A stretch of DNA of 64,000 bases from a virus (taxonomy: Duplodnaviria > Heunggongvirae > Uroviricota > Caudoviricetes): positions 19,249 through 83,248 of the IMG/VR virus record IMGVR_UViG_3300021600_000003. One strand, 5' to 3'. Positions 1 to 37,067 of this stretch are shown here, piece after piece (within the stretch, counting starts at the first letter, position 1; the number at the start of each line of letters is the position of its first letter). The notes below the pieces were generated by a model. That model was not told where the DNA came from, did not search any database, and worked only from the letters and a program-made list of their open reading frames with translations. The position numbers and the translations under genes were made by a program.

Positions 1-2238
1 TATAAGAGGTAAAACACTATCTGCAAATTCTTTTGCTTGCATTTGACCTTTATATTGATATATTGCATATTGATCATAAAAATATGCTACTGCATTTGAT
101 AAAAAAGGATCAGATAACATAGTAGGAGATGATGTTAAGAATACTAATTTATCTATACTTGTAGCATCTTTTAATTTTTCTATATCTACTTTTTGAATAT
201 TACCTGCTTTATCAACTACATTATCAAAATTAGTTTGACTAAAGTTTCCAGTTAATGCTCTCATAATTTGAGCCCCTTCTCCTATAAAGGTTCCGTGCAT
301 GTCTTCTCTAAGTTTAGCTTTCATTACCTCACCCTTTACTGTATCATACTTCCTTTGTAGTTCTGCCTTATATCTATGTATATAACCATCCATCCATTTG
401 TCTGTTATTTTTGCCAAATGAGTAGTTAATTTATTTTCTATATTTTTATTAGAAACAGCAAAATTAGTAGTAACATTACCCATGTTATTTAACATCTTAT
501 CATATATTGCCAATCCTTCTGTCTCAGAAGGCCATTTATCTTTGATATATGATAACATATTTTGAAACTCATCAGTAATTGTTTTAAAAGAAGTAGCAAA
601 TGTAGAATATGCTTGTAATTCACTAACATTATCTAACAGTTTATCTATTGTATTACTGGTCTGCATCTTCTTAATAGCAGCATTCATAGCATCTGGAATA
701 GTCTCCATTGAACGATATGTGTCACCTAGATTTTGAGCAACATTTAACATCTTTAATAACCTATGATTATTATCTGTAGGATTTTCCATAATATCCTTTA
801 GAAGATCTCCTGCTATAGCAAAACGAGATATTATATCAAATATTCTATTATAGTCTTTATTTGCTGGATCTTGTAACTCCTCAATAAGAGCTTTCATATT
901 CTTGCTCTCAACATTAACTCTGAATACTTTAGCAATCTGTTTTTTGATAGCTTTAGTAAACTCATACATAGCTTTTATGATATCTCCTGCCTCATATGTC
1001 TCAGGAGTTTCTTCTTCCATATTATCAAAAAATACACTATCATATACAGACATAACCTTCTTAACATTAAGATTACTTATATCTCCTTGTATAATTTGGT
1101 TAGCTGCCTTAATAAAAGGAGAATTAGCATCAAATAAAGGTTCTGTATAAATAGCTGGAGAGTTTATATGAAATAACTTTCTTAAAAACTTAAAGAAGTC
1201 ATGAGCCATTTGTCTTAACCAACCTCTCTTTTTTCCATATTTTGCATCTGCCTCATTTCTATATGCTGCCTTTACATATTCACCTATTTGTTGAGCAATA
1301 GCTTCTCTTTTTATCTTATCTATATCTGGACGTCCATTCTTCTGATAAGCTGGGTCTGTACTATATTTCTTGTATATCTCACTGTAGAGTGGCATATCTA
1401 TAATCTTTGCCATCATTTCCATCTTTAAAGGATGTTCATCTGGTAATAATTCAGTAAAGAAGTGAGATACCTCATGAGGTAATTCCTCAATCATAGCTCC
1501 TCTTTTTATTAAGATAGTATAATCTCTAATAAGAGCAACACCATTTCTATCTAAGTTATCAAACTCAGCTACTCTAGCATTAGGATTTAACTTCTTCATA
1601 AAGTTAAGCATATCCTGTACAGAAGGGTCTTGTAGAAATGGATGGTTTAACCATAGATTATCTCCTATAAGATTTAGAGAAGATGAGGTAAATTGCTTTA
1701 GATATGTAGCTCTTAGATAATCAGTTATGTGTGCAAATCCTCCACTTTGACCCAGAAGATATTTTACTACTAACTCTTCTGGAATATCAATCTTCCATTG
1801 ATTTAATCCTATACGAGTAATTACCTCTCGAGTAAATTGCTTATTAATATCAGCAATAATATTCTCTTCAAAACTTTTTAGTCCTACCTTTGGGAATATT
1901 TTTAAAGCTAGATTAACAATATTTTCACCAACAGCTCCTATTGCTCCTTCTTTTTCACTAGTAGAAGAATTAGCTTGTTCAGCTATTTCATGTAAAAATA
2001 ACTCTGGATCACTTTCAAATGATGTTTTATAAAGACCTTTAATTTCGTCTTTATATTTAAAAACATCATCTACCATTTTCAACTGTTCATCAGTTAAATT
2101 AGGTATATCAGTTTTTACCTCATTCTTTGCAGATAGTATATTATTATCTATATTAAAAAGAGATGACTGTACAGCTAATTCTTTAACTGCATCAATGATA
2201 CCAAGTTCTATTTTATTTTTATCTAGTCTACATTTCAT
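1..2238 (-). CDS. giant virion protein, C-terminally truncated by the window edge (at least 746 aa in window)
   Basis: ATG at 2238-2236 on the minus strand, with the frame open down to position 1 (own translation MKCRLDKNKIELGIIDAVKEL...). It is absent from the ORF track because it has no stop in the window. An in-frame stop lies upstream at 2265-2263. It contains an HEVSH (HExxH-like) motif. Confidence 0.6.
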   Translation of the reverse strand, partial: MKCRLDKNKIELGIIDAVKELAVQSSLFNIDNNILSAKNEVKTDIPNLTDEQLKMVDDVFKYKDEIKGLYKTSFESDPELFLHEIAEQANSSTSEKEGAIGAVGENIVNLALKIFPKVGLKSFEENIIADINKQFTREVITRIGLNQWKIDIPEELVVKYLLGQSGGFAHITDYLRATYLKQFTSSSLNLIGDNLWLNHPFLQDPSVQDMLNFMKKLNPNARVAEFDNLDRNGVALIRDYTILIKRGAMIEELPHEVSHFFTELLPDEHPLKMEMMAKIIDMPLYSEIYKKYSTDPAYQKNGRPDIDKIKREAIAQQIGEYVKAAYRNEADAKYGKKRGWLRQMAHDFFKFLRKLFHINSPAIYTEPLFDANSPFIKAANQIIQGDISNLNVKKVMSVYDSVFFDNMEEETPETYEAGDIIKAMYEFTKAIKKQIAKVFRVNVESKNMKALIEELQDPANKDYNRIFDIISRFAIAGDLLKDIMENPTDNNHRLLKMLNVAQNLGDTYRSMETIPDAMNAAIKKMQTSNTIDKLLDNVSELQAYSTFATSFKTITDEFQNMLSYIKDKWPSETEGLAIYDKMLNNMGNVTTNFAVSNKNIENKLTTHLAKITDKWMDGYIHRYKAELQRKYDTVKGEVMKAKLREDMHGTFIGEGAQIMRALTGNFSQTNFDNVVDKAGNIQKVDIEKLKDATSIDKLVFLTSSPTMLSDPFLSNAVAYFYDQYAIYQYKGQMQAKEFADSVLPLI

Positions 2239-2273
2239 TCTACAAATATATATGATTATTAATTAATTACAAA

Positions 2274-2714
2274 TTAACATTTAATATTAATTTGAGGAAG
2301 ATTATCAGGAATAACTATATCTCCTTCTTCAGAGACTATATAGTTTCCTTCTTTTTGTATATTTTCTACTTCTTGTTTACGAATTTGCTGAGCTGACTGT
2401 TCTTTTAAATCATTTTCTATTTGTGCTTTACTTCTGTCTATTGCCTCAAATGCAGTATCATTTGGTTCTATTTTTATCTTTGTAACTATAGATGATTGTC
2501 CCATTGTAGAATAATTACCTATACTTATGTCTCTTGAACGTATACGAAATAAATCTCCCATATCTACACCATATTTAGTTTTAGCTTTAGCAGTTAAAGT
2601 AGCAATAGTATCTATTAAACGACTAGAAGGTAATGTAGTATATAATTCCATATTAGGTTTTACTAACATATGTTCTATCATATACTTTAAAGTGGAATCT
2701 TTAGAACAACTCAT
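2274..2714 (-). CDS. hypothetical protein, 146 aa
   Basis: ORF track entry. Tightly packed between two giant genes on the same strand. Confidence 0.45.
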   Translation of the reverse strand: MSCSKDSTLKYMIEHMLVKPNMELYTTLPSSRLIDTIATLTAKAKTKYGVDMGDLFRIRSRDISIGNYSTMGQSSIVTKIKIEPNDTAFEAIDRSKAQIENDLKEQSAQQIRKQEVENIQKEGNYIVSEEGDIVIPDNLPQINIKC

Positions 2715-2718
2715 ATTA

Positions 2719-5700
2719 TTATATTTTACAATTTAATGGATCAATTTCATTATCTTTTACATCATCAAGCATAAAGTCATTTTTACCATCTAATTTAACA
2801 CTTTGCTCCTTTGCTAATCTATTCATAAAATGAGTAATATTTGTATTACCTAATTTACTATATAGTTTTCCTGTATGAGATTTTTGATAAGGTAGTCCCG
2901 GACGATCTTTCTTCTTTTTCTGATATAAATCACTTTCATGAACTCCATATTGTTCACTTGTTTCATCTGGTGCAGCAGCTATTTCATTATTAATAATAAC
3001 AGGATTATTCCATTTTAAGTCAGGATTCATATCCTTAAACATCTTTTCAAATTGTTTAAGATAATTTGTAATAACTTCATTAGTTGCTGCTTCTGTAGTC
3101 TCTCCATCTTTAAAAGAAGCTCCTTCTTTAAGGAAACGATTAAAGTTATTAATAGATGTTTCTACTACATTTTTGATAATCATAGGAGGCACCAAGTAAG
3201 AGAATGAACCTTTATTTCTCTCTAGATGAGAAGATTGTGTAAGCAGGTAATATCCTAGTACGTTAAATATCTGACGTATTTCTTTTACATTTGCTGAATC
3301 TTTATAGAAGTCTAGTCTATCTTGGTTCTGTCTAAGTTTAGCCTCAATAGTAGGAAAGCTAGATATATCAAACATTACTAACTTCTCAAAGTTATCTCTA
3401 AGAACTGTTTCTTCAGCTTCTCTATCTTTGGGATTTGGAGATAGATTAAAGGTTATATAGTTTTGAGGTAAAGCATTTAATACATCTTTAAAATCTGGAA
3501 CACCATCTTTCATAGGATCAATACCATGTTCTGATTTAGTATCAATACTTTGTATAAGAGGTATTTCTCTTAACTCTGAGTACTTTGAAGTAAGAATATC
3601 CAACTGAGATGATAATAAACTTTTACTATATAAAGCTCCAATCTTTTCATCTTCAGATAAATTATCTACCTTAGAAAGAAACTCTTTAGCAAAGGCTTTA
3701 TAACTATCAGTACTCTCAACCAAAGGTCTAAGTAAAGGAGATATATCATATTCAAAAAACTCATAAAGTTTATTAGCATTCTCTCCATCCTTATAGATAA
3801 AGAAGTTAAGATATGTAGAATATATAAAATCAGATATTACTCTCATCTCTACCTTTCTTCTATCCTCTGGAGTACCAAATGTCTGCCATACTATATTCTG
3901 TAATACATTTTGGAATTCTTTAACAAAGAATTTGTTATCATTTATTAATATATTTGGAAATGCATTTGATAACATATTTTTAACAGTCTCATCATTATAG
4001 AAAGGAGTTACCATACTTTCATCTTGAATCTTATTTTCAAATTCAGGGTTTGACATACCTGATACTTGACGTGCTTGTTTTAAAGCTTCTGCATATGAAA
4101 TAGCAGATAAACTATTAACTTTTGTTGAGTTTCTTGATAATCCCTTAATAAATAATAAGTAGAACATATCACCATCAGCCAATACTGTTCCATAATAAGA
4201 AGCTATATCCTTAGCCATATCAGTATAAGATGGATTCTCTCTAAGAAACTGTTCCATATTTCTTTTATACTTTGGTGCATTACGCTGGAATTCTCCATAC
4301 TTTTCAGTAAAATCTGCTAAATCTTTTTCAGAAAAAGATAAGTGTTTATCACCTAAATAGTTCTGAGATGCTGGACCTGCAGCAAACATATATTGATTAA
4401 TACTAGTTTTTCCATTAGTTTCTTCATTCTTAACTCGATACTTTCCCCATCCCGGAAAACCAGTTTTAGCATCCGATATTGGAAATATTTCACTACCTGA
4501 CCATTTCTGAACAGAAGATACTAATGCATGTTTTGGACGAGCATCTGTACCTAATTTATCTAATTCATTTTGTACGTCTTGTACAACAGGATTATTTAAG
4601 AATAAAATTGTTCTTTCTAAAGGAACTCCTTGTGCCATTAACCATATCATTGGTTTAACATTTAACCAAGTTATTCCAAGAGAAGGAAATATATCAGCAT
4701 TTTTAAATAAGTCTAATAGAGAAGATACTTCTGCTGATAAGTCTTTTGTAGTTCTGTCCCCATTCTCATTAAATACTGATATTTTAATACCCTTACTTGT
4801 ATCTTTATTATACAATAAAGGAGTATGTACAAAACGTTTATATGTTTTTTCTTTATTGTTCTTTACTTCTTCAAGTAGATTTATACCTGTATCTATTCTC
4901 TTAAGTAATGCATTAAGTGGACCAGCACGATATTCTCTCTGAATAGTTAATCCTGATATCTCTAATAAAGGAAGCATAGAACGGAAACGTACTAGAGAAC
5001 CTAAAATAGAACGGATAGCAAAATTATTATGGTGATTTGCAATATTAGTTACATAACTCATTGCCTCTAGAGAGGTAAGTTGTCTACCTAATTCTACTGG
5101 ACTTCCTGTTTTTCTCTCAAGATTTTCTTCTGCTAACTTCTTAATCTTAGCTATAGAGTCTGTTTCTGTAAGAAAATCATAGTTCTCAGGAGCTTCCATG
5201 AACTCTAATATTGATGATACTATATCATTAGTTACACCTTTAATATAATTATCTCTTTTACTTTCCATCTCATTTAATTCCTTCATTAAAGGAGATGAGA
5301 TTCTTTTACCTTTATTCAAATCAACAATTAAAGAAGATACTGCATCTACGATATCATTAAATTCTCCTTTTTTTCGTAACTTAAATAAAGTAGATTTAGG
5401 ATCTATAAATCCTGCAACTGTACGATATCCATCCTCTTCAACAATAGTTAAATCTCTATCTAAATCACTAACTGTCTTACCTTTTAGTGCATATACCTCA
5501 TTCTCTAAAAATTCTTTCTTTATAGAATTTAATTGTTCATCATCTGTTGATGTATTTTTAGCTAATAAGAATGATTTTTCTGTACCAATTTTAGTAGATA
5601 ATTCTTCTATCTTATTTGTAATATCACTATATTGTTCAGTAGGACGCTTAATTATACGACCTAAACTATTTAGATACCTGAATGATGCAGTTACTGTATC

Positions 5701-8700
5701 AATATCATTATCACTACCTGTCTGAGCATAGAACTCAGGAGGAAGTAATATCATATCTCCAAATGCTTCTGGCAAGAATTCTCTTACTATAATATGTGAG
5801 GAGAAGTTTAAGTCTTGTAAAGGGATACGTACACCAATAAATGTAATAGAATCTCCATATGTATTTAACCACTTCTCATTACGTATTGCCTCATTTAGTC
5901 TTTTAAGAGTAGTAATACGTTCTCCATCTGGATGATTTAAGTTAAGAAGGGGATAGAACTGCTTACGAAAAGATATACGACTTTCTACAGGAAGTGTAGA
6001 TATAGCTTTACCATCTACAATTTTTAATCCATGCCATTTTAATTCTATTGTTCCTCTATATTCTTCTGGTAAAGAATCTTCTAGTGAAGAATAAGTACCA
6101 TCTTTATTCTTTTTTCTAAATTTAATTGGTTCATTTGAACCCATCTCAAATGACTGATAGAATTTGGTACCATTTAACTTTACTTTACGGAAATTATCAT
6201 CTACAATACCAGCAATTAAATCAATAATATTCTTTTGGAAAGGAAGAGCCTCTAAAAAAGTAGAAAAATTACCATCATCATTACTATTAAGTAAGTCTAA
6301 TACTTTTTCATCAATATCTCCTATCTCTAACATTCTCTCTCTCAAATATTTAACAAAGGTTGCTTTATCTCTCATTTTACCATCAATATCTAATCCCATA
6401 TCTGTAAGAGCACGAGATGAATTAATACGAATATAATCACTTAAACTTCTTACTACTTTCTTATAAGAATTAAGAAGAGTAGTAGATACTGTTCCATATT
6501 TCTGTTGAGATAGTAATCCCTCATAGAAGATAGATCGTAACTGAACAGCAAATGTAGAACGATCATTTAGATGAGTAGTATTTTGTTGAAACTTGAAAAA
6601 TCCTCCTGCGTGGAATGTTGAATGTAAAGTTTTACCAACAGTACTTGATAAACCATCTTTACTAAATACATTTTCTACTGGAGGAGTAAATGCTTTACTA
6701 CCACTATCCATTACCATATAATCAATATCCTCTCCATACATCTTATCAAAAAGAGGACGTGTAATTCTATTCATATCAAATTCAGGAAGTAATACCCTTA
6801 ACCCCATCTTATCAAACGAAGGAGTCATTGGAGAATTAGTCTCATAATAAATAGGTCCTGTTAATGCATATTTAGATACATTAAAAGAAGAGTAACTACC
6901 ATCCTTATTAGGACCATTTTTAATATGATCACTTTCTTCATCTGAAAGTTCATGACCTAAACCTTGTTTTAATAGTAATATCTGTCTAATATATTCTTTT
7001 TCATCTTTATCCCAATCCCATACCATCTCTCTCATTCTCATAAAACGATTAGTATCTAAGTTAAGATAAGCACCAGCATCAGCAACTTCCATATCTTTAA
7101 AAGCAGTTAATATATTTACTTTCTCAACTCTCATTTGCTCAAGAGTAATATTAGCTCTTTCTCCTGTAGATTTCTGCTTACGAAGTAATAATAAGGCTTT
7201 AAGCATATTATCATCTTTTAAAGCAATACTCTCCATTTTAATATCCTTCATAACTACTTTCTTAACTAACTGATAGTTTTTTTGAGAAGTAATACCTTTT
7301 GATGATTGATATGTATCTTTTAGTGATCGAGCTGCTGTCTGAGCTGCCATAGCTTCTGCCATAATCTCATCTACCATATTGATAGAACCATTATTAGCAA
7401 TAATCTTTCTTCTCTTGATTGGATCTTTATAGTAAGTGTAATCTCCAAAGAATAGTAAACTATCCTCCATTGTCATAATGAAGTCATTAGCTATAATATC
7501 TCTAAATATACCATCAGATAACTGACCTAGTGTATTTATTTTCATATAGAATGGATTACGAACAGAGTTAATAGCTGATAGAGTATATAGTATATTATTA
7601 CTTTTCTCAGATAAGCTATTATTAAATACATTCTTATATGAGTTATCATTTGTTATTGCAACCTTCTCAAAATAATTACTTATCTCTAAATTGATTTGAT
7701 TGAAAAGAGTAGGATCTTTTACCTCAAGACGACTCATAAGAGTATTCATATCCCCACCTTCTTCTCTTATAAATGCTTTTATTTTTCCTCTAGAAATAGG
7801 AAGCATTTCATCAAATACACCTAATTTATCTAATCCTTTATTAGCATGATTAATATCTCTTTTAGCATTAGCATCATCTAGATAGTATTGGAACTTCCAA
7901 GCTGCATACTGTATATAATTTCTAACCTGATTAAGGAAAGTAGGATTAACAAAACCATCTCTTTCAATATTAACAGCTTTAATGAACTTTCTTTCTATAC
8001 CATCAGTTTCTTGTAAAGATAATCTCCAAGCTGTATTAGATGTCTCTACTCTTCTCATTTCAGAAGAACCATCAGACTCATATAGTACAGCATCCATTAA
8101 CATTTTCTCTTCTGCAGATGAATCTTGTACTCTCTTACTTTCTAAAGAGTCCTCACCTATGTCTGATATCTGAGATATAATAGATATACCCATTCTCATA
8201 TTTGGTACTTTAGTACCAGTCTGATTAAATATTCTATTAAATAACCAAGAGTTTATAATTTGAGGATTCTTTATTGGATCTAAGTGAGATAATGCTGGGA
8301 ACTTTGCAAAGTCACTAAAACTATTAATGTGCTCATTTATAAGCATTTCTGTTACCAACATGTTATTTGGTAAGAAGTGAGAGAATTGCATCTTGTCTAT
8401 AACAATCATAGAACCTGATGAGAAACGTTTATGATAGTTTTTCTCAATACGAGCTAACTGTTGGAATAGAGGAAGATATGCTGCAAATACTTTATATTTA
8501 GGATCTCTAGTTAATTTTCTATCCTTACCATCAAATAACATTTTACTAACAGGACTTGGAGAGAAAATACGACGAGCAAATCCTTGTAACTCCTCCTCCT
8601 TTTCTCTTAAGGTGTTCATAGCAATTATCTTTTGTACACCATCTAAATCTGGATTAATATTATACAGTTGTAGCTGTTTCCACTCTTTAACTAAGTTTAC

Positions 8701-17258: not shown

Positions 17259-17260
17259 TA

Positions 17261-19825: not shown

Positions 19826-19830
19826 TTGTG

Positions 19831-19865
19831 CAAATTTACATTATAATTCCTTGGTTTCCAATTAA
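19831..19865 (-). promoter_or_regulatory. promoter-like element directly upstream of the 854-aa gene (TAAATTTG -7 box, 5 nt from the ATG)
   Basis: Minus-strand read ttaattggaaaccaaggaattataatgTAAATTTGcacaaATG. The -33 region is TTGG rather than TTTG. Confidence 0.35.
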
Positions 19866-19874
19866 TTTTATAAG

Positions 19875-21926: not shown

Positions 21927-24727
21927 GATTGTAAGATTTTATGTCCACCTTTTTTATATAGACCTTTTGGTTTTAAGTATTCATTAATGAAACGATTAAT
22001 TCTTTTAGGCTCATCAACATTTCCCGGAGAATTTATATCCAAAGCTTCACCTTTATAATGAAAGCTAGTTTTCGTATGTACTGGATTTACCTTCTTATCT
22101 AAACCTTCTCCATAGGTCAATCCATATTGAGGTAAAGCTTGAGCTACCTGTTCTAAAATATTTGGAGTAGCTGCAAAATGCAAGTGATCTCTATGTCCAG
22201 ATATTGGATGACCTAAATCTTTTCCATATTTTCTAGAGGTAAAACCTCCTGTTTCTGGATTATTATAGAAGACCTCAAATACCTTATTAGTACTTGTTCC
22301 TGTATAAGGATTACCAAATCCAGCATCTGAACTATTATCTTGTGCATAAGGGTTTCCACTATAGTAATTTTCTTGATTATTAGCTTGTTCCATAGCTAAA
22401 TTATTTTGTTCACTATTATCTGGACGTACATCTTCTGTTGTAGGAGCAGTATTATCATCTTTAGCTTTGCTTGTTACCTCATCTTCAGTATTACTATCAT
22501 CAAATAAGAAATTAAACATATCTTGTTGAGACATGCCACCATTCTGATAGATATTACCACCCATTTTTTGAGAAGACATTCCTTTAAATAAATCCATACT
22601 ATATGGATGAACAGTAAATGCTTCTTTATTTTTCTCAGAGAGTTTTATATTTCTAAACTTATTTACATCACTCTCAATAATAGGATCTAATCCTAATTGT
22701 TCCATAACTCCTCTATATTCATTACCTAAATCTTGCCAACTTGCTTTATTTAGAAAATCATTATTATTTATAATTTGTTCTTTTGGGTGATATATTGCAT
22801 TATTAGCAAGTCTTTTTTGGTTCATTCTTTCATCAAACTTAACAGGACCAATTAAAGAACGTTCTTGCATTGCTTTTGGATACATATATGTTGCAGCCAT
22901 TCTATCTTCATGCATCATATTCTGCAATTCCTTTAATCCAGCATAATCATGTGTATTAAATTTAGTAGGATTATAATTATCTAATAAGTTATATACTTCT
23001 TTATCTGTTAAAGATGTCTGAGGAATATATGATATTACTTTGTTAACTAAAGGATTATTAGATTGTGGTTTTTTAGGAATACCTATATTAAATGCCTCTC
23101 TAACATTAATCTCTTTATCTATATCTTCCCAATTTTTATAAAGTAAATCATTACTTTGACTTAAGTTATTGGGAAGAATACCATTATCAACAAATCTATT
23201 AGCATCTTCTTGTAATTTTAAAGAAGCAGTCCAACCTTCATCTGCATTCTGTCTCATTATATTTAAAAGTCCTCTATTCTTATATTTCAAGTTACCATAC
23301 CAAGGTGTACCATTTTCATAACTACTCATAGATTTTCCTACAAATGAATTTTCAATTGGAGAACTATATCCAGAAGTATGTTGATTACCATCCCATAATC
23401 CATACTCCTTAAGGTTATCTATTTTACTATATTCTGCTGTATTTTTTACAGGAGATAAATCACCAAATCCATTACCTAACTCATATAATTTCTTATCTCC
23501 TTGTTGAGTAAATATGCCCAATTCATCTACTCCTACATTACTTAATCTTGTAGGCATTAAGTTCTTTGCTCCTCTATACATACTTCCAGCTATAGGTAAT
23601 ACATCTAAAGCAGTAAATAATGTATTGGTTGATGCATTTCCTACATCTCTTAAATTCTTTACATTTGACCACTGATTATATAAATTTGGAGTATTCATTA
23701 ATGCTCTACTACCAATATATGCTGATCCTGCATTCATTAAATTTGCTCCAGCAATACCTCCTATATTGGTAGTTAACCCTTGACCTATAGTATTTACTAT
23801 TGAACTTTCTGCAACTGTTGAACCAATAGCATCTAGTGCAGAAAGTCCAAGTGGTGCAAGTTCAGCAGCAACATAAGGAACTAATGTACCTACTGCTAGA
23901 TTTCTAGCAAACTCTTTACGTTTTCTACTTGTTATATTAACTTGACTCTGAGGGTCTTGTGAGGTAATTCTTAAATAAGGATCTACTTTTTGACCATAGT
24001 TACTATCTCTAGAGATAGGAATATTGGATGCTTTTAGCTGTGGTTGTTCCTTTGCTTGTAAATTTGATAATTCAGAATTCCATCCTATTTGTGCTTTAGG
24101 TAGTACACCACCTTTCTTTACACTATTAGTAAGCATATTATAATTTAGTCCACCTTTCTGAAAATTAATCTTAGCTCCTATATTAATTCCAGTACTACTT
24201 TTTTCCTCTAAAGGATTCATTCTATTAAATTTAGCAGTAAGATTAAAACGTTTAGTAATAGGAAATTCTGCTGAAGCACCAAATTCGGTTCCCTCCTGAT
24301 TTCTTTGAAAATAAGGATTGAATACCGGTCCACTATTAATCTTCTGTTTTGGAAGATATAAATTAATAGGTGCTTGTCCACCTTTTTGATACATAGAATG
24401 ATCTGGAGATAAATTAGGAATAGATATATCCATTGCTCCCATACGGGTACCACCATCATCATATTTATCTAACCAACCTACAGAATCTCTTGATATTATT
24501 CTACCACCTACTTGCATAGGTATCTCTCTGACTACATCTCCCTCAAACTTATAAGGATTCTTTCTACCTGCCTTCATCTTTTTCTTATTACCCTTATTGT
24601 CTATTCCGAATAAGTCAAAAGGAGTATTAGACATATCTATTAATCCCTCTGGAGTATGAATATCCAGATAGGGATTATTAGCGTATGGAGAACCTTTACT
24701 GTATCCTAGTAGTGACTGTAAATCCAT
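21917..24727 (-). CDS. virion/tail protein, 936 aa, with a C-terminal LAS-type (peptidase M15-like) zinc-peptidase motif; candidate virion-associated peptidoglycan hydrolase
   Basis: C-terminal GHPISGHRDHLHF...TSFHYKGEALDINSPG matches the S-x-H-x2-G-x-A-x-D / H-x6-D signature of D-Ala-D-Ala-carboxypeptidase-like peptidases. Confidence 0.8.
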   Translation of the reverse strand: MDLQSLLGYSKGSPYANNPYLDIHTPEGLIDMSNTPFDLFGIDNKGNKKKMKAGRKNPYKFEGDVVREIPMQVGGRIISRDSVGWLDKYDDGGTRMGAMDISIPNLSPDHSMYQKGGQAPINLYLPKQKINSGPVFNPYFQRNQEGTEFGASAEFPITKRFNLTAKFNRMNPLEEKSSTGINIGAKINFQKGGLNYNMLTNSVKKGGVLPKAQIGWNSELSNLQAKEQPQLKASNIPISRDSNYGQKVDPYLRITSQDPQSQVNITSRKRKEFARNLAVGTLVPYVAAELAPLGLSALDAIGSTVAESSIVNTIGQGLTTNIGGIAGANLMNAGSAYIGSRALMNTPNLYNQWSNVKNLRDVGNASTNTLFTALDVLPIAGSMYRGAKNLMPTRLSNVGVDELGIFTQQGDKKLYELGNGFGDLSPVKNTAEYSKIDNLKEYGLWDGNQHTSGYSSPIENSFVGKSMSSYENGTPWYGNLKYKNRGLLNIMRQNADEGWTASLKLQEDANRFVDNGILPNNLSQSNDLLYKNWEDIDKEINVREAFNIGIPKKPQSNNPLVNKVISYIPQTSLTDKEVYNLLDNYNPTKFNTHDYAGLKELQNMMHEDRMAATYMYPKAMQERSLIGPVKFDERMNQKRLANNAIYHPKEQIINNNDFLNKASWQDLGNEYRGVMEQLGLDPIIESDVNKFRNIKLSEKNKEAFTVHPYSMDLFKGMSSQKMGGNIYQNGGMSQQDMFNFLFDDSNTEDEVTSKAKDDNTAPTTEDVRPDNSEQNNLAMEQANNQENYYSGNPYAQDNSSDAGFGNPYTGTSTNKVFEVFYNNPETGGFTSRKYGKDLGHPISGHRDHLHFAATPNILEQVAQALPQYGLTYGEGLDKKVNPVHTKTSFHYKGEALDINSPGNVDEPKRINRFINEYLKPKGLYKKGGHKILQSWE

Positions 24728-24730
24728 TTA

Positions 24731-27025
24731 TTAGTTTTTATGAAATCCATGATTCTTTTTCATCATTAATGCAAATGCTCTTCTATGTCCTGTACATTTA
24801 GGATTACTCATTGGAGTACACCATCCTTCATGATCAGGATTAACAGCTCCTCTTAACCAGTTTCCACCCTCTTTCATCATACCTTGTTGTTGCATCATAG
24901 CTTGCTGATTAGGATCCATTTGTTGCTGTTGAGGCTGTTGTTGTTGAGGTTGCTGTTGCTGTTGACCTTGCTGTACAGCTTGTGCCATTTGTTGAATAGC
25001 TTGTTGCTGTTGCTGTGGTTGCATTTGCTGTAACTGTTGCATGATCTTTCTAGGATCCTGTCCTGCTATCTGAGCATAAGCTTGTATCAACTGCATAACT
25101 TGCTGTTGCTGCCCTTGTTGTGCATGTTGAGCTTGTCTATGGGAAGCCTGACGTTTTGCAGGGTTACCACCTTTTCTTAGTATCATATCGTCTTGATTTA
25201 TATCTCCACCACTTTCGTAGTTTTTTAAATTAATATCTCTATATGGTAATACAGCATCTAATGTTCTACCAAAGAATCCTATATTATCTAACTCACTCTT
25301 TATTTTACTAATATCTTTTGGTTTAATAGTATAAGGTTGATTATTAAATGGTAGAGTTTTTAAGTTATTAATACTTCTATAGTTTTCACCATTTGACCAC
25401 AATTGATGAGCTAATGGGTTAATCATACTTTGACTAAGAGTATCTCCGGGTAATTGAGCAGGAGGACGTACATCACCAATTCCTAATATTCCTAATCTTC
25501 CTCCTGTCTGATATTCATCTAATCCCATATCTAAATCATCAGGAGTAGGTTCGATTAAATTATTTCCTATATTTCTCATTGTTTGATTAAATCCACCCCA
25601 TTGTTTATATGGATGAGGACCCTTTCCAAATCTCATTAACTTACTTATTAAATCTTTTACAACCATATCATCTATAGAATAACCTCCCATAGCTTTCTCT
25701 GGATATGATGGATGTTTACCACCAGTCATATTCATAGGACCAGCATCATTACTCCATTTACCATGCTCTCTTAATATATTCTTTAGATTACCTCCAAATT
25801 TGGCATAGTAACTATATGGATTCATCATCCCTCCTTGTTGTGCATACATATTATTTGGTGTATATTGAAAGTTAGATACTGGCATAGCACTCATTTGTCC
25901 TAATGCTGTTTGTTGATTATAGTCATATTGATTCTGTTGATTACGAGCATGTATTCCTGATAGGAAATTTGCTCCAATTGCAGCACCTCGTATTCCTAAG
26001 AATACATCAAATGGGTCAGTCTTCTCTTTTTTAGCAAGTTGTTTAGGATGATTTGTACCCGGACCAGCACCAGCTGCAGTTTGATTAGCTTCTGCACGAT
26101 TTTGGTCTTGGTTTATATTATTACCATCATAAGGGTTAGCTGTCTTTTGTCCATTTACTGGATCTGTAGTAAAACCAGTATTAAAATATTGAGTATCATT
26201 TCCCGGAGCATTATTAACATCTGCTAAAGCTGCTGCTTCTTCTTCTGGAGTTAATGGTAAATCAGTTGAAAGTGGAGGGGTATTAGGTTGATTGGCTTGA
26301 TTAGGAAGCCATGGATTTTTTCCAAATGGAGAATAAGTGACAGCTTTACCGGGCATATTAATAGTAGGTACATAATTCTGAGCAGGAGCTGTAGATGCAG
26401 TAGTACCTTGAGTACCTTTACTATCATCTCCTGTTTGTACCCAACTATCTGTCTTTTTGTCATAGTATCCCGGACTCCAACTACCATCTAGATTCTGAAT
26501 ACCTTTATTGGTACCACCTGTTTGTTTTTTCTTACGCATAGCATCCTTCATAGCTTCTTGTCTCAATCTTTCCGTACTAGCTTTATAGTTTGCCCAAGAT
26601 TTTCCAGTAAAGCCATAAGGAATAACATCTCTTTGAGGTTCCCATAATGGAGTATCTCTATTTACATAATTTAAAGCTAATTCACGAGATATATTCTTTA
26701 ATTGTTCAGTTGAAATTTCAGGGTGAGCCATATTGAAACGATCAAACCCATCATCAGGAAAAGAAGAACCTTTTCTTTTATCTAATAATGGAGGTAATTG
26801 TAAATCATCATAAAACTTATTATAAATAGGCTGTAATTGTTCCATTGTTAAACTAGATTGAAGTGGTCCAAGACCACCTACTTGAAGTTTTTTCTTTGGA
26901 CGTAGATGTTTTTTAGGTACTTCATCTGGTAGATGTTTATAATCTGTCTGTTTGCCCCATTTATCTGCCCATTCTTGATGAGTAGCAAATGCCCACTTAC
27001 TTTGTTGTTTAGATTTGAATGGCAT
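24731..27025 (-). CDS. poly-Q-containing virion protein, 764 aa
   Basis: ORF track entry. C-terminal QQGQQQQVMQ...QQGQQQQQPQQQQPQQQQMDPNQQAMMQQQ low-complexity tract, followed by a Cys/His-rich tail CTPMSNPKCTGHRRAF. Confidence 0.75.
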   Translation of the reverse strand: MPFKSKQQSKWAFATHQEWADKWGKQTDYKHLPDEVPKKHLRPKKKLQVGGLGPLQSSLTMEQLQPIYNKFYDDLQLPPLLDKRKGSSFPDDGFDRFNMAHPEISTEQLKNISRELALNYVNRDTPLWEPQRDVIPYGFTGKSWANYKASTERLRQEAMKDAMRKKKQTGGTNKGIQNLDGSWSPGYYDKKTDSWVQTGDDSKGTQGTTASTAPAQNYVPTINMPGKAVTYSPFGKNPWLPNQANQPNTPPLSTDLPLTPEEEAAALADVNNAPGNDTQYFNTGFTTDPVNGQKTANPYDGNNINQDQNRAEANQTAAGAGPGTNHPKQLAKKEKTDPFDVFLGIRGAAIGANFLSGIHARNQQNQYDYNQQTALGQMSAMPVSNFQYTPNNMYAQQGGMMNPYSYYAKFGGNLKNILREHGKWSNDAGPMNMTGGKHPSYPEKAMGGYSIDDMVVKDLISKLMRFGKGPHPYKQWGGFNQTMRNIGNNLIEPTPDDLDMGLDEYQTGGRLGILGIGDVRPPAQLPGDTLSQSMINPLAHQLWSNGENYRSINNLKTLPFNNQPYTIKPKDISKIKSELDNIGFFGRTLDAVLPYRDINLKNYESGGDINQDDMILRKGGNPAKRQASHRQAQHAQQGQQQQVMQLIQAYAQIAGQDPRKIMQQLQQMQPQQQQQAIQQMAQAVQQGQQQQQPQQQQPQQQQMDPNQQAMMQQQGMMKEGGNWLRGAVNPDHEGWCTPMSNPKCTGHRRAFALMMKKNHGFHKN

Positions 27026-30000
27026 TATCGTATACTTAAGAGTTTCTTAATATTATATAATTTTGTTATAAACTTATTCTTTCCAGATACACTTCTGATA
27101 AGACGGAATTTATTATAGTAATGTCTAAATTTCTTTCTTTGTTCTTCTGCTTTATCCATATCAATAGCTAGTGGATTAATAACTTGTTTATAACCACTTT
27201 CATCTGTTGGAAATAGATGATTTTCAGCTAATGTAAATTCACCTCTATCTTTAACCATATCCCAGAATTGATTTATACGATACTTGTTTTCCTCTTTTGA
27301 GAAAAGAATATCATATGTTACCAAATCAGTAGTACTTCTTATTGGATATTTGATATCTAACTCAGGTTCGTTAGAACGATAGTTTAACCTTAAAAGAGGA
27401 GATATCTGTTCACTGTTACTTACAACTAAATGTGAGAAGTTCTCGTGATGCATATGAAAACGATCTCTTCCAAAATTCTTATAGTGATATACCTCTAATA
27501 AATATTCTAATGAACGAGGTATCTCTATCTGTTGTCCAGAATTAGATAAGAACTCTATCTCAAAAGGATAATCTACTCCATAAAAGTTACAGAAACTATC
27601 ATAACTTTCATTATGTTTATAAGCACTATTTCCCTTAATAGTCATAAAGTGATCATCTCTCTGTATAGTCCAATCAGGATGCCAATCATGCCAACTTATA
27701 AATCCTTTATCTAGAGGACTATATGATAATGTCCATGATATATCATTAAAATATCTTTCATCTCTGAGAGATATAGCATTTCCTTTATATATAAATGCAC
27801 TACCATTCCATGTAATATCCTTAATCAAATCTCTCTTTGGTGAGAAATCTCTCTTACACAAATAAAATGTTTCATTAAATGAATCAAAAGCTGTTAAATA
27901 ACCAACTCCAGATATAGGATTCTCTATCTGAGGATATATAGGAAAATACTTATATAGAAAGATAGGCATATAGTTTTTACACCAATACGATATACCCTCT
28001 CTAGAGATATCATCTAAATTCTCTGTATAGTTTATAATTCTACCTTGTCTTTCAGATGGATAATATCTACCAGTATGACTATTAGTAAAAGCATATCTGC
28101 TATTACATGCTGCATAGTTATTATCTGTAGGCATAATCTCACGTGGATCTTGAGCAAATAATCCACCATCTCCTATAGTAATCTTTCTACCAGACTGATC
28201 AAGAGATAAGAAATCTCTACCCATTGTAATAAAAGGAGATGCCTTAGAGAATAAGAATATTACCCTATCCTGATCTAACTTATGTATACCTGTTAACTCA
28301 CCAAAATCACTCTCACGGAAAGCAAAGTAGTTAGCTGGTAAGAAGTGTTGCCAGTTATCTCCTTGTTGCATATTAAATGCTGGTAAAGAGTATATTACAC
28401 TATTTGTTTGTTGAGTTGGTATTGGGTCAGCAGGATCAAAATTAAATCTCTGCATAGGTGAAAATATCTCTGTTGTATATAAATCAGAAAAAGCACGAGA
28501 TATATTAAATTCCTCTGGAGAAGATAAACGATCTGAACGGAATATTTCAGTTAGATTTCTATCTTTCTTTGAATAGTAAGGAAACTCATTCAACTGCTTC
28601 TCTCTAAAGTCTACATTATAATCAGCCTCAACAAAGAAGTCTAATCCAGCATTATTGGATAAGTACATATAAGCATTATCTACTCTACTGATATTTTTCT
28701 TATCATTACCTATACAATCTAAATTATACTTACTTGTTGTACTACTTGAGAATTTAGTATAGTTTATTGTTTTAGGAGATATCAATTCAGCAAAATCAAA
28801 CTTAGTAGTATCCATCCAGAAACGAGGGTATCCTATATTACGATATTTTCTATAATCATATTCTACCCCTGAAGGATAATTTGTATTAGCTAGATTCTGA
28901 GAGAAAAACTGCATTCTCTTTTGGAATTGGAAACGAGTAATAATACAATCTCCCCCATATAAGATAGGAGTAGTACTAAAATCACTATCAAATGGTAATA
29001 AACAACCATGTATAGATACAGAAGATGATGACCCTAATTGTCCATATTGGTTAGGATTTATCTCCTTATTAGTAACATAGAATGCTGAACCTACTGACTT
29101 TGTTTTTTTATTTAAGTCACTACATACCTTAAATCCACTAGCTGTATTTCTTGTTGTATCTTTTGTTGAAGGATCCTTTATAGCTTTATTTAATTGAAGA
29201 TAAATAGAAGGTTCTCTCAATAGGTTATTAAATACTTCACCTTCTATTGATACTACAGTTGAAGGTATTTGTAAAGCAGGTTTAACTAAACGTCTTCTCT
29301 TATTACCTTCAGAAACACATATAGATTGATTAAAGATAGCAGAAGCATTATACTGATATACATAATCAGTAGATGCCATAAAGTTATAGATAGTATTTAA
29401 TATTTCATCAGAATACCTAATAATAGAGATTGCTGTTAAAACAACAGTTGCTGATGCTGAAGCTATAATTTTCAATACATCTTTTAAAAGCTTAATATAT
29501 GTCTTTATCTGCTTCCAGTTAGTAGGATTTCCGGGATTACTTGCTATCAAAGCTAATAAGTCAGATATTGCATCTAGTGTAGCTGTACCAGTAATAGATA
29601 AAGCAGAACCACCACCTTGTGAGGTAGATTGTGTGGAATGTGTTACACCTGCTGGTGATGACGAATTAGGTCCAAAATTTATATTTGTTACTCCGGGTGT
29701 TGTAACAAAGTCTGATGTACCTGTTGCTGTAATGTTTAAACTTGCTTTTCCCTTATCTGCTCCAGTACCTGTTGTATTTATACGAGTTTTTAATCCTTGT
29801 GCCTCAAAGTAGGTCTCAATAGTACCAACAGTTAATGCTGCCCAGAAGGCAAATTGTGTAAGTAATTTACCTTGTGGATGATTATGTACCAAGTCGAATT
29901 TACCACTAACATCAGCTATTTCCTCACACTCAATCTTTATCTCTGGACCAAGTGAATACTTTGGCTCAAAAGAGGTATGAGGAGAGTAAAAAGTAAACTT

Positions 30001-31737
30001 ATCTTTATGATAATCTGTTAATGGAGTAAAGTTTGTTTCCTTATGTTTCTTAAATGCTGTCTGTGTAGATGATAAAAACTGATCAGGTGATAAGTCATTT
30101 ACTGGATAGTTAGAATAGAGAACAGTTTCATCAAATGATTTGTCATAATAAGAACGAACATTTGTCATTAAACCTCTTGCTATTACCGTTCCATTTCCAC
30201 CCTTTCTATCAGAACGAGTAATCTTATATCCTACAATATCTGGGTTATCAAAACGAGGAATATTCTTAAAACGAATACCTAATATATTAATATAAGTCTT
30301 GTTTCCTATTTTATTATAACGAGGAACTATACACTCATCAGGCATCTTATGATAACGGATTGGTGTATTTGCACTCTTTCCAAAAGTAGCTACATTATCA
30401 GGATATAAATCAGTACTCTCAAAGTATCCTAATTTTCCTGTACCTAAAACTCTTCTTCCACATGCAAAATCATTATTCTCAACTTTCATTTTTTCTGCAG
30501 TATTCTCTACTCTCCAGCGTGGAATAGCATCTTTCTTCTCACAATCACTAAATTGTTTATCTAATTCATATACGTCAGCAGAAGATACTGGAGTCAAATC
30601 ATCACTAGTAGATAGTCTTCCAGCAATAGCAAATTTTTCTGTTAATTCTCCTGTATTATAAATACCTTGAATATAGAAGTCATAATTCTCATCTCTATAG
30701 TATGATATATCCTTTCCATCATCTTCATAATAATTACTTTCTACTTGCTCTACAACATATTCAGCCTCAATAGTTAATGCTTTTAATTGATAATCTTCTT
30801 CTGGACGACTTACTAAATCTCCAAATAATAGATAGTTTGCATTAGAAGAAATAATACCAGCTTTAATCCAAGTTGGTTTCTGTATTACTAAATCAGATAG
30901 TAGAATATTAAGATATGTTGTATTAACAAAATCTGTAATAGATACACTCTTTACTTTTGTAGAATAGATACCTACTTGTTTTGCTAACTTTGTTACTCCT
31001 TTTGTAGCAGGATCTACATAATTACCTACTACAACTAAAGCAAAATAATCAAATTCTGTATCTATATTATCTAAAGTTAACTCTAGAGAGTTACTGTTTG
31101 TGACAGAATATAGTTGTTGTCTGTTTGAGATACCATACCAATCAGTAAATACTTGTCCATTAACTACATAAGCCAAAGCTACAGAATACATACCATTTGG
31201 CATATTACCATATTGACCTTTCTTAGTATTAATACAAGGATATTTTATCTTTCTAAATATTCTAATATCATCACATGTTGCTTTTGATATATTCTTTAAT
31301 TCTATTCTTCTAGGTAGATTTCTCTTATCTGTAAAATATATAATTGTACCCTTCTGAAAGTCGTTTTTACTCTCTCCAGTAATAGGATAAGCATCATTAA
31401 AATTAAGGCAATCATTATTATATAGTTTCTTATAACTACATGATTTACTGTTTCCTATACCAATTTCTGAGTGAATATTGTTAGTAGAAAATATAACAAT
31501 ATCATCATTAGATATAGATATTGTACCAATAATTTTATAAGGAGCACTAAAACATAAAGTATTACTAGGTTCATTACCAATTGAACCTAAATCACCTTCC
31601 TTACTATTTCTTACAGCATTTCTGGCATGAGTATACTGCTCTTTACCAATAAGAGAATTTGTAAGGTCTGTTACCAAACCAGCCTTAGTAGTTATATTAG
31701 TCGTCTCGTTAGATGTATTCTGTAACTTATCTGGCAT
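27025..31737 (-). CDS. large tail/virion protein, 1570 aa
   Basis: ORF track entry. TAATG stop/start coupling with both neighbouring genes. Confidence 0.8.
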   Translation of the reverse strand: MPDKLQNTSNETTNITTKAGLVTDLTNSLIGKEQYTHARNAVRNSKEGDLGSIGNEPSNTLCFSAPYKIIGTISISNDDIVIFSTNNIHSEIGIGNSKSCSYKKLYNNDCLNFNDAYPITGESKNDFQKGTIIYFTDKRNLPRRIELKNISKATCDDIRIFRKIKYPCINTKKGQYGNMPNGMYSVALAYVVNGQVFTDWYGISNRQQLYSVTNSNSLELTLDNIDTEFDYFALVVVGNYVDPATKGVTKLAKQVGIYSTKVKSVSITDFVNTTYLNILLSDLVIQKPTWIKAGIISSNANYLLFGDLVSRPEEDYQLKALTIEAEYVVEQVESNYYEDDGKDISYYRDENYDFYIQGIYNTGELTEKFAIAGRLSTSDDLTPVSSADVYELDKQFSDCEKKDAIPRWRVENTAEKMKVENNDFACGRRVLGTGKLGYFESTDLYPDNVATFGKSANTPIRYHKMPDECIVPRYNKIGNKTYINILGIRFKNIPRFDNPDIVGYKITRSDRKGGNGTVIARGLMTNVRSYYDKSFDETVLYSNYPVNDLSPDQFLSSTQTAFKKHKETNFTPLTDYHKDKFTFYSPHTSFEPKYSLGPEIKIECEEIADVSGKFDLVHNHPQGKLLTQFAFWAALTVGTIETYFEAQGLKTRINTTGTGADKGKASLNITATGTSDFVTTPGVTNINFGPNSSSPAGVTHSTQSTSQGGGSALSITGTATLDAISDLLALIASNPGNPTNWKQIKTYIKLLKDVLKIIASASATVVLTAISIIRYSDEILNTIYNFMASTDYVYQYNASAIFNQSICVSEGNKRRRLVKPALQIPSTVVSIEGEVFNNLLREPSIYLQLNKAIKDPSTKDTTRNTASGFKVCSDLNKKTKSVGSAFYVTNKEINPNQYGQLGSSSSVSIHGCLLPFDSDFSTTPILYGGDCIITRFQFQKRMQFFSQNLANTNYPSGVEYDYRKYRNIGYPRFWMDTTKFDFAELISPKTINYTKFSSSTTSKYNLDCIGNDKKNISRVDNAYMYLSNNAGLDFFVEADYNVDFREKQLNEFPYYSKKDRNLTEIFRSDRLSSPEEFNISRAFSDLYTTEIFSPMQRFNFDPADPIPTQQTNSVIYSLPAFNMQQGDNWQHFLPANYFAFRESDFGELTGIHKLDQDRVIFLFSKASPFITMGRDFLSLDQSGRKITIGDGGLFAQDPREIMPTDNNYAACNSRYAFTNSHTGRYYPSERQGRIINYTENLDDISREGISYWCKNYMPIFLYKYFPIYPQIENPISGVGYLTAFDSFNETFYLCKRDFSPKRDLIKDITWNGSAFIYKGNAISLRDERYFNDISWTLSYSPLDKGFISWHDWHPDWTIQRDDHFMTIKGNSAYKHNESYDSFCNFYGVDYPFEIEFLSNSGQQIEIPRSLEYLLEVYHYKNFGRDRFHMHHENFSHLVVSNSEQISPLLRLNYRSNEPELDIKYPIRSTTDLVTYDILFSKEENKYRINQFWDMVKDRGEFTLAENHLFPTDESGYKQVINPLAIDMDKAEEQRKKFRHYYNKFRLIRSVSGKNKFITKLYNIKKLLSIR

Positions 31738-32256: not shown

Positions 32257-32529
32257 TTATTTTATTTTTTTAAAAAACCATACAATATTTGTTTCAGGAA
32301 TTCGTTTCTTATCTGCATCTAGATAGTTATCTCCAACTTTGAAACCTCTTCTCCAGTAACAGAATTCATCAAATCCAATTTCTGTGTAATCATTTCCATC
32401 TTCATCTGTTCCAACCAAGTCTGTTAAAGCAGTATCGCTATATAACATTATTACCTTAACAGTATCCTGAGAGTAACAATTAATGGTGATGATGATTGCC
32501 AGTATGAATAGTACGATACGTATTAGCAT
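32257..32529 (-). CDS. small protein with an N-terminal signal/TM segment, 90 aa
   Basis: MLIRIVLFILAIIITINCYSQ hydrophobic N-terminus. The 5' end overlaps the 311-aa ORF. Confidence 0.35.
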   Translation of the reverse strand: MLIRIVLFILAIIITINCYSQDTVKVIMLYSDTALTDLVGTDEDGNDYTEIGFDEFCYWRRGFKVGDNYLDADKKRIPETNIVWFFKKIK

Positions 32530-33415
32530 TACTATTAAAATATTTAAAGTATTCGTTATACCACTTCATTTCTTTCTTTCTCTGCATATCTACATATTCT
32601 CCATATTCCTTTGTAGCTGTTACATTAAAGGCATCTAACCAAGCTTTTACTCTCTCTGTCTGTGCCAATTTATACATATCTCCATAATGACCATCACTAT
32701 TAAAGATAGTATCCATCAATACTTTCTCCTTAACTGACCACTCATAATATGGAGTAATTAAAGGATGAAATGGAAATAATAAATGACCATCCTCATCTTG
32801 CATATTAGCTAAATACATGATATATAATTCTCCTGAACGGAATGGAGTATTAATATAATCATTTTCAATAGTTACCTGATATCTTCCTTTATGTCCTACG
32901 TTAGGACAAGATATATGACAAAATGACTGAGATGTTGGAGCAATACTTAACTCTATGAAAGACATACTGTTATGAACTGTTACATTTTCTGTTCTCTTGA
33001 TAACAACTCCATAACTATCTGCATTTCCTAATGATCCTCTATCTACTTCTGCCTCATAAATAATATCTCTATCAAAGTTATTACTAAAAGGATTACGCAT
33101 ACTCATTGTAATACTATTACTTGTAGATAAAGCTGTTACAAAGAATAACTTATCAAAGTTTAATGGCAACTTAGCTTTATAGTCATGAACTGGTATACAT
33201 AGTTGTTTTAAATCTCTAATAGATATTCCTAATCTCTCATTACAAGCCATTACAGTTTTAACACAGGTACCTTCATCTATCAAACCCTCAGCATCCATCT
33301 TCCTAAAGTCACTCTTGACGATAGCCATCAAATCCTCTATAGGACGTAATTCCAACATCTTCTTGGGAACTGGTATATGTATCTTTTCGTGATCGTGGTG
33401 GTGTGTATGTTCCAT
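32480..33415 (-). CDS. hypothetical protein with His-rich N- and C-termini, 311 aa
   Basis: Starts MEHTHHHDHEKIH and ends TGNHHHH-stop. Candidate metal-binding termini. Confidence 0.6.
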   Translation of the reverse strand: MEHTHHHDHEKIHIPVPKKMLELRPIEDLMAIVKSDFRKMDAEGLIDEGTCVKTVMACNERLGISIRDLKQLCIPVHDYKAKLPLNFDKLFFVTALSTSNSITMSMRNPFSNNFDRDIIYEAEVDRGSLGNADSYGVVIKRTENVTVHNSMSFIELSIAPTSQSFCHISCPNVGHKGRYQVTIENDYINTPFRSGELYIMYLANMQDEDGHLLFPFHPLITPYYEWSVKEKVLMDTIFNSDGHYGDMYKLAQTERVKAWLDAFNVTATKEYGEYVDMQRKKEMKWYNEYFKYFNSNANTYRTIHTGNHHHH

Positions 33416-35868: not shown

Positions 35869-36002
35869 ATGTACAGCGAAAATCAGCGATTTCCTAATAT
35901 TTAATGTTAAGAAATTGTTAAGAGTGGGATGGAGGGTTCTCGAAACCCATGCACCTACTTTTTACAGACGTTGTGACTTGCCCTGAGTATCATCCCGAGT
36001 TG

Positions 36003-36085: not shown

Positions 36086-36090
36086 AAGTG

Positions 36091-36378: not shown

Positions 36379-36383
36379 GTTAG

Positions 36384-37034: not shown

Positions 37035-37067
37035 TTTCGAGGAATAATCCTCTTTCAAGTGGTATTT

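Follow-up and report, generated by a model that had tools for sequence, protein, structure and literature searches.

A predicted virion RNA polymerase with a DNDID active site in the tail and cargo module of a distant crAss-like phage

The DNA analysed here (hereafter, the window) is a stretch of 64,000 nucleotides (nt), positions 19,249 to 83,248 of the virus record IMGVR_UViG_3300021600_000003 in IMG/VR. Its positions 1-31737 are occupied by giant open reading frames (ORFs) on the minus strand, one of which, with 3156 amino acids (aa), is predicted from sequence comparison and structure modelling to encode a single-chain, two-barrel virion RNA polymerase (RNAP) of the type of gp66 of phage phi14:2, with a Mg-binding triad D2160/D2162/D2164. 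With a probability of about 0.9, the region represents the module for the distal tail and the injected cargo in a distant crAss-like podophage of large size (~160 kb) and includes this gp66-type polymerase. Homology, fold similarity, motif conservation and synteny were all observed directly in this analysis. Read along the minus strand, the genes for ring proteins are followed by those for the predicted muzzle (1570 aa), four proteins of 764, 936, 683 and 854 aa, a gp67-like protein of 1689 aa, the polymerase, a 146-aa protein and a gp65-like protein. A previous reading of the same DNA, made from its letters only (the sequence-only reading), had matched the cluster with the tail and ejected cargo proteins known from crAss-like phages, and the apparent identity of the 1570-aa ORF as the muzzle, of the ORFs upstream of it as rings and of the neighbours of the polymerase as the rest of the polymerase trio bears this out.

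The polymerase motif, sequence and fold

The sequence-only reading had sought the motif D-x-D-G-D in the giant ORFs and had named VLADGDMF in the 3156-aa protein as the nearest match. Our motif search agrees that the literal motif is absent from all of the giant ORFs and locates VLADGDMF at aa 2669. The claim that there is no recognisable polymerase motif is nevertheless incorrect because DxDGD was sought instead of the crAss-type DFD[I/V]D. The crAss-type virion RNAPs contain a DFDxD motif, 1361-DFDID-1365 in gp66 of phi14:2, with Ile or Val, never Gly, in the fourth position in all crAss-like polymerases (Drobysheva 2020). Alignment, hhalign and a checked translation identify the counterpart in the 3156-aa ORF (2719..12189, minus strand) as D2160-N-D2162-I-D2164, in the context GSDNDIDTVT, encoded at 5698..5712 on the minus strand. 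There is no Gly of the cellular type (NADFDGD) in the fourth position, which is occupied by Ile, the crAss norm. A D.D.D search of the 3156-aa protein returned three sites, among which only GSD2160-N-D-I-D2164 is conserved. We rejected DWDKD at 1725 and DLDRD at 2242, which are not conserved, as well as the ADGD at 2672, within VLADGDMF, which is partly kept, as EDGD, and lies outside the catalytic barrel that aligns with gp66.

A search of 5.8 billion proteins yielded 23 homologues of the 3156-aa ORF. The sequence GSDNDID is present in all 13 close homologues (33-71% identity), and the distant homologues mostly contain GSDFDIDK or GSDFDVDK, the former being the sequence of gp66 itself; among the distant members, P0014-P0021 and P0023 contain DFD[I/V]D. 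The Gly and the three Asp of the motif (G758, D760, D762 and D764 in the numbering of alignment A1) are invariant in the 24 sequences. Among 80 IMG/VR relatives, the motif is DFDID in 46 and DFDVD in 26, with a few others and not a single DNDID. By these alignments, the Asn in DNDID is a clade-specific variant.

Plain BLAST, profile comparison and fold search all place the polymerase in the 3156-aa ORF, so the proposal of the sequence-only reading that the enzyme lies outside the window or is unrecognisable falls. In blastp, aa 1561-2164 matched gp66 859-1365 (E-value (E) 6e-7), with the alignment ending exactly at the motif, and aa 2116-2185 matched the DFDVD region of p-crAssphage gp44 (E 5.5e-10). 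When aa 1500-2700 were compared with a phage collection using tblastn, all 40 matches were to crAss-like genomes, and the annotated ones were mostly RNAP genes. Transitive links connect gp66 to P0015 at 4e-30 and P0015 to the 3156-aa ORF at 6e-56. In hhalign, the family of the 3156-aa ORF matched gp66 with a probability of 98.3% and E 2e-14, and D2160/2162/2164 were aligned with D1361/D1363/D1365 of gp66 with confidence 9. The less sensitive scans gave little: phmmer of single giant proteins against the sequences in PDB returned nothing useful and missed 6VR4 as well, and Pfam and PHROG scans of all the giant proteins were nearly blank, with only a weak PD-(D/E)XK match and a muzzle PHROG.

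The core of the putative polymerase, aa 1401-2600 (4390..7989, minus strand), was modelled with AlphaFold2 (pLDDT 81.8, pTM 0.78). The top Foldseek match of this model in PDB was 6vr4_A, that is, gp66 (E 3.1e-26, probability 1.00, TMq 0.56), followed by QDE-1 (7y7p_A, 9e-4) and then by many beta' subunits. The sequence-only reading had itself proposed a check of the HHpred/Foldseek kind and had named a two-barrel polymerase in one of these ORFs as grounds for its own rejection; this check reveals a two-barrel polymerase fold in the 3156-aa ORF, albeit with a DxDxD rather than a DxDGD motif. Like gp66, the 3156-aa protein appears to combine a single-chain two-barrel fold with a DxD[I]D active site that aligns residue for residue, and it is encoded at the end of the structural module, between gp67-like and zincin-bearing gp65-like genes; the two also share the pattern of terminal Cys residues discussed below. 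Unlike gp66, it is 3156 rather than 2180 aa long, contains DNDID instead of DFDID, and adds a 425-aa N-terminal PD-(D/E)XK head and an HExxH module, neither of which is detectable in gp66. The resemblance to the QDE-1 protein of Neurospora and to the cellular multisubunit RNAPs consists in the active site formed by two double-psi barrels with an Asp triad; these enzymes differ in having DYDGD or DFDGD, with Gly in the fourth position, and are only very distantly similar (TM 0.17 or less).

The apparent existence of a crAss-like lineage that lacks a recognisable virion polymerase is thus not real here: the enzyme is predicted to be present, and it was the search motif that was wrong. In screens for crAss-type polymerases, DxDGD should be replaced by DxD[IVG]D within the context G[SGA]DxDxD. 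The module is a divergent addition to the known family of crAss-type virion polymerases, to which this lineage contributes a DNDID variant of the active site and a PD-(D/E)XK nuclease head on the polymerase chain.

The substitution of Asn for Phe could be taken to mean that the 3156-aa protein is catalytically dead or has been repurposed and is now a scaffold or a nuclease carrier, given that DNDID is limited to the clade of the window, with none among the 80 IMG/VR relatives, and that the chain has gained other catalytic domains. We consider this improbable: invariance extends to the three Asp, the Gly before them and over 25 further positions of the core in sequences that share just 19-25% identity, and the Ile typical of crAss-like polymerases is kept in the fourth position. 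The second position of the motif is not a metal ligand in the cellular and QDE-1 enzymes (NADFDGD), which also counts against a dead enzyme. Less probable still is that the polymerase is encoded outside the window and that the giant proteins have other functions, such as purely structural roles or tail fibres (the latter raised by the sequence-only reading and, as an account of the whole cluster, excluded): the absence of a literal DxDGD, the nearly blank Pfam and PHROG scans and the lack of a gp66-like polymerase between the gp67-like and gp65-like genes of the related phage phi4:1 might suggest as much, but sequence, profile and fold all point to a gp66-type polymerase in the 3156-aa ORF, and the giant proteins are Cys-poor like ejected proteins, the Cys-rich fibre-like ORFs being located at 39-46 kb.

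Partners and additional domains of the polymerase

The 1689-aa ORF (12189..17258, minus strand) is, by sequence, the homologue of phi14:2 gp67 and hence a member of the polymerase trio: in blastp, its aa 116-494 match aa 44-364 of gp67 with E 1.5e-12. On the other side of the polymerase lies a 146-aa ORF (2274..2714, minus strand) that has no counterpart at this place in phi14:2. It had no PHROG match but is kept as a 152-aa ORF in the 168.5-kb relative L005 (57% identity, with the same Cys pattern), and we consider its product a candidate linker. The last ORF of the set (1..2238, minus strand) starts with the ATG at 2238 and remains open up to the window edge. This partial, 746-aa ORF shares 45% identity with a 2068-aa ORF of L005, for which more than 35 IMG/VR loci have a match (E down to 1e-24) in the ORF that lies downstream of their polymerase. 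The direct match to gp65 of phi14:2 is weak (E 0.05); HEVSH at aa 255-259 (nt 1462-1476) of the partial ORF corresponds to HEIMH at aa 245 of gp65, a zincin-bearing polymerase-associated protein. The partial ORF thus resembles, at the sequence level, the N-terminal 746 aa of a gp65-like, zincin-bearing polymerase-associated protein, the full length of which is ~2068 aa in the relative. The gene order of the cluster is repeated in L005.

The N-terminal part of the polymerase chain (aa ~140-425; 10915..11772, minus strand) contains a predicted PD-(D/E)XK nuclease domain, similar to Cas4 and RecB, that was detected by Pfam, PHROG, fold and motifs. Fourteen homologues retain the motifs GELD312, D326-I-K328 and Q345xxxY349. 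The isolated domain scored 22.7 bits with PF12705 (cut-off 22; E 1e-4). The PHROG scan returned the exonuclease PHROG 298 at 2e-6, and by fold, the domain matches the Cas4-family ACE1, the AdnA nuclease and Exo5. It lacks the Fe-S cluster with four Cys that characterises Cas4 and AddB, as it contains no Cys and the whole protein only Cys3 and Cys3154. The head has no counterpart in gp66 because the hhalign alignment with gp66 begins at query aa 426. In 10 IMG/VR relatives (L057, L018, L043, L030, L074, L007, L008, L026, L071 and L028), the PD-(D/E)XK domain resides in the upstream gp67-like protein instead of the polymerase. Judging from these sequences, the break point between the two proteins has moved between those relatives and the 3156-aa ORF, and the Cys pair that flanks it has been kept.

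The head is followed by a conserved HExxH (zincin-like) module, aa ~470-610 (10360..10782, minus strand), with HEGWH at aa 524-528 (nt 10606-10620) and EELLAEEF at aa 573-580. No variation is seen among 23 sequences at H524, E525, W527, H528, E573 and E574, and a hidden Markov model of the module matches 61 polymerase ORFs in the IMG/VR loci. Other enzymes are found on the polymerase chains of relatives: the distant P0015-P0018 contain His_Phos_1 (histidine phosphatase), 2OG-FeII_Oxy_2 (2-oxoglutarate-Fe(II) oxygenase), cpYpsA or DUF7831 domains. Such a variety of enzymes on the polymerase chain resembles the 'polyvalent protein' theme. In the phage of the window, the polymerase chain would deliver additional catalytic domains, the PD-(D/E)XK head and the HExxH module, along with the polymerase.

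By analogy with phi14:2 and with crAss001, for which mass spectrometry is available, and in view of their depletion of Cys, the proteins of the module would be packaged in the virion, would travel through the tail in an unfolded state, before or along with the DNA, and would then refold, after which the polymerase would transcribe the early genes. The record annotations of the homologues from phi4:1 and phi14:2 state that mass spectrometry found these in virions. Coliphage N4 (Schitoviridae) is similar in that its gp50 is a giant, capsid-packaged polymerase that is ejected through a short tail; however, the fold of the N4 enzyme is unrelated (T7-like, single-subunit).

Several points weigh against this interpretation of the region. 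Packaging and activity are argued from other phages. The identity of the 3156-aa ORF to any characterised polymerase, gp66 included, is ~22%, and the two-barrel similarity to 6VR4 and QDE-1 in the model concerns the fold as a whole and not its separate elements (double-psi barrels, bridge helix, trigger loop). The second motif position is Asn here, as opposed to Phe in gp66 and in 74 of the 79 motif instances from IMG/VR (Tyr or Cys in the rest). Scanned in isolation, the HExxH module had no Pfam match, and it has no fold assignment. Finally, no informative homologues of the 764-, 936-, 683- and 854-aa proteins were found among the PDB sequences with phmmer or in 50,697 phage records with tblastn.

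Cysteine residues at the protein termini

The few Cys residues of the polymerase and its partners are located at the ends of the proteins. The single Cys of the 1689-aa gp67-like protein is its last residue, Cys1689; the polymerase contains only Cys3 and Cys3154; the 146-aa protein contains Cys3 and Cys146, the latter again the last residue; and the gp65-like protein, in the 746 aa that are seen, contains only Cys3. These sites map to 12181-12194, 2728-2730, 2706-2708, 2277-2279 and 2230-2232. The same pattern is present in phi14:2, with Cys1797 of 1797 aa in gp67, Cys3 and Cys2179 of 2180 aa in gp66, and Cys3 in gp65; in Bacteroides phage crAss001, with Cys2339 of 2341 aa in gp47, Cys5 and Cys2404 of 2412 aa in gp50, and Cys5 in gp49; and in phi4:1, where both gp038 and gp035 have a terminal Cys. 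The nucleotides at the gene junctions can be ruled out as the cause of the pattern because gp47 of crAss001 is encoded on the strand opposite to gp50 and gp49, an arrangement that also sets crAss001 apart from the window; in the relatives, the junction gaps vary from -4 to +67 nt. In N4, the ejected proteins gp50, gp51 and gp52 contain no Cys at all and hence no terminal ones.

We surveyed 56 distinct, complete polymerase ORFs from IMG/VR, with a median length of 3464 aa. Exactly two Cys, both terminal, were found in 47 of these; 53 have a Cys in the first seven residues and 54 in the last seven. The upstream proteins have a Cys at the end in 51 of 57 cases, and this C-terminal Cys is the only one in 49; the downstream proteins have a Cys at the start in 64 of 65 cases, with a single, N-terminal Cys in 48. 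In the exceptions that were checked, the Cys is 8-21 residues away from the end of the protein. Among the four polymerases without an N-terminal Cys, three follow a Cys-free upstream ORF and not a gp67-like protein. A gp67-like N-terminal region is part of two polymerase homologues, P0015 and P0016; the only Cys of P0015 is C-terminal. We found no mention of the terminal-Cys pattern in the literature checked, which for the phi14:2 polymerase study was the preprint text only.

On the simplest reading of the pattern, to which we give an even chance, disulfides would join the proteins of the polymerase module head to tail, each linking the C-terminal Cys of one protein to a Cys at position 3-6 in the protein that follows. 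In the window, such a chain would run from Cys1689 of the 1689-aa protein through Cys3 and Cys3154 of the polymerase and Cys3 and Cys146 of the 146-aa protein to Cys3 of the gp65-like protein. The result would be a covalent, linear and threadable 'virtual polyprotein' that could leave through the tail in a set order and come apart once reduced in the cytoplasm. If the terminal Cys do form disulfides, they would provide a concrete mechanism for ordering and pulling ~600-900 kDa of cargo through the crassvirus tail; how cargo is ordered and passes through the tail is still described as open in the 2023 crAss001 and 2026 N4 papers.

Alternatively, the terminal Cys could serve in metal binding, attachment to the portal or the rings, formation of homodimers or N-to-C cyclisation of single chains, a set of explanations that we rate below the disulfide chain but regard as a serious contender. 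Disulfides between the proteins of the module are a prediction from the positions of Cys, and the Cys-rich ring and muzzle proteins offer possible partners for the terminal Cys. Virions of crAss001 contain many structural disulfides, which is compatible with such partners. In contrast, the Cys counts are those of a linear chain, in which a Cys is present only at the C-terminus of the first protein, only at the N-terminus of the last and at both termini of those in between. Furthermore, the N-terminal Cys is missing mostly in polymerases that follow a Cys-free ORF, and P0015, with its gp67-like N-terminal region, has only the C-terminal Cys, as would be expected of head-to-tail joining. Cyclisation, in particular, does not explain the proteins with a single Cys.

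Muzzle, cargo and neighbouring genes

The 1570-aa ORF (27025..31737, minus strand), with 18 Cys, is identified by sequence as the muzzle protein, the distal gatekeeper of the tail. In tblastn, it matched the 'Muzzle protein' of the epsilon crAss-like phage crAssE-Sib, gp042 of Cellulophaga phage phi4:1 (Lightbulbvirus), a virion protein verified by mass spectrometry, and, most strongly, a protein of Leptolyngbya phage Lbo-JY46 (94% coverage, 2e-93); it also matched PHROG 37948 at 2.7e-38. Upstream, outside the span covered by the sequence-only reading, two Cys-rich proteins of 311 and 229 aa (32480..34104, minus strand; 1.6-3.1% Cys) are apparent tail-barrel rings: in blastp, they matched both annotated ring proteins of crAssE-Sib and gp043/gp045 of phi4:1, and they belong to PHROG 9863 and 34036. 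The 311-aa ring protein (32480-33415, minus strand) is His-rich at both termini, starting with MEHTHHHDHEKIH and ending with HTGNHHHH. The phages phi4:1 and crAssE-Sib are among the closest annotated relatives for muzzle and rings, with identities of 21-28%. The muzzle is closest to those of Lightbulbvirus, the epsilon group and a cyanophage, and the best matches of the terminase of the window phage are all from crAss-like or Flavobacterium phages, at 24-27% identity. By these sequence comparisons, the phage is a remote crAss-like relative.

The roles of muzzle and rings are defined in the crAss001 atlas, in which cargo proteins are located between the muzzle and the polymerase trio. The window has a similar layout of rings, muzzle (gp44 in crAss001), cargo (gp45 and gp46) and polymerase-associated proteins (gp47, gp49 and gp50), but no homologue of gp45 or gp46 is detectable in it, and the intermediate proteins number four, compared with two in crAss001. 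These four, of 764 aa (24731..27025), 936 aa (21917..24727), 683 aa (19875..21926) and 854 aa (17261..19825), all on the minus strand, are probably ejected cargo because they lie between the muzzle and the polymerase trio, their order is kept in L005, and their Cys content is 0-0.26%. This is the range in the eight large ORFs of the set, compared with 1.1-4.8% in muzzle, ring and fibre-like proteins; in the 146-aa ORF, the content is 1.37%, with both Cys terminal. The 764-aa protein is Gln/Gly-rich (0.26% Cys) and matches gp45/gp46 in position, and the 683-aa protein is Asn/Gln-rich and free of Cys. A hydropathy scan of the cargo proteins showed no transmembrane-like segment, unlike gp45 of crAss001.

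The 936-aa protein, which is also Cys-free, starts with a strongly conserved N-terminal module of 75 aa (nt 24503-24727) that is 49-89% identical in ~30 otherwise divergent, mostly Cys-free proteins (P0025-P0055). In 10 of these, PF18013 (Phage_lysozyme2, tail lysozyme) is among the precomputed annotations, and the domain was confirmed at the C-terminus in both proteins that we scanned; no lysozyme domain was detected in the 936-aa copy of the window. The 75-aa module may act in docking or ejection as a conserved element to which a variable body is attached, and the 936-aa protein is a probable ejected cargo protein of the 'tail lysozyme' position.

In phi4:1, gp038 is gp67-like and gp035 is gp65-like, and the giant genes downstream have been found in virions by mass spectrometry. 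Neither gp035 nor gp038 can be considered the polymerase. At the site where the window has the polymerase, phi4:1 instead encodes a protein of 517 aa that carries Cys at each end, and after it comes gp036, a hypothetical ORF of 119 aa.

The ORF map agrees with the lengths and the minus-strand orientation of the giant ORFs given by the sequence-only reading. The eight consecutive ORFs listed there are real, but the true count is nine, the 146-aa ORF at 2274-2714 having been overlooked. The tight coupling through TAATG/ATGA that it described is likewise seen only in part: there are TAATG overlaps at 12189, 27025 and 31737, and the other tight junctions of the cluster have a 10-nt overlap or gaps of 2-4 nt, but at two others the genes are set further apart, by 49 nt (19826-19874) and 35 nt (2239-2273). 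Scans of positions 1-20000 showed no clear excess of promoter-like sites (103, compared with 112 expected from shuffles) or terminator-like sites (9, compared with 5.1 +/- 2.3 in shuffles), which fits co-transcription of the cluster.

Beyond the rings, five minus-strand ORFs of 354, 456, 567, 182 and 753 aa (39177-46362) are unusually Cys-rich (2.4-4.8%) and probably encode external tail or fibre proteins, with disulfides as a stabilising element. Within the structural module lies an array of 12 tRNA genes (36002-38365, minus strand), for Ser (two), Leu (two), Arg, His, Gln, Trp, Phe, Cys, Thr and Pro. It is flanked on one side by a 280-aa ORF that resembles a DNA polymerase exonuclease subunit (34776-35618, minus strand; PHROG 403, 8e-49) and on the other side by an HNH endonuclease ORF (38642-39082, minus strand; PHROG 59, 9e-44). 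Located between tail genes, the exonuclease-subunit ORF, the tRNA array and the HNH ORF may together be an inserted mobile block.

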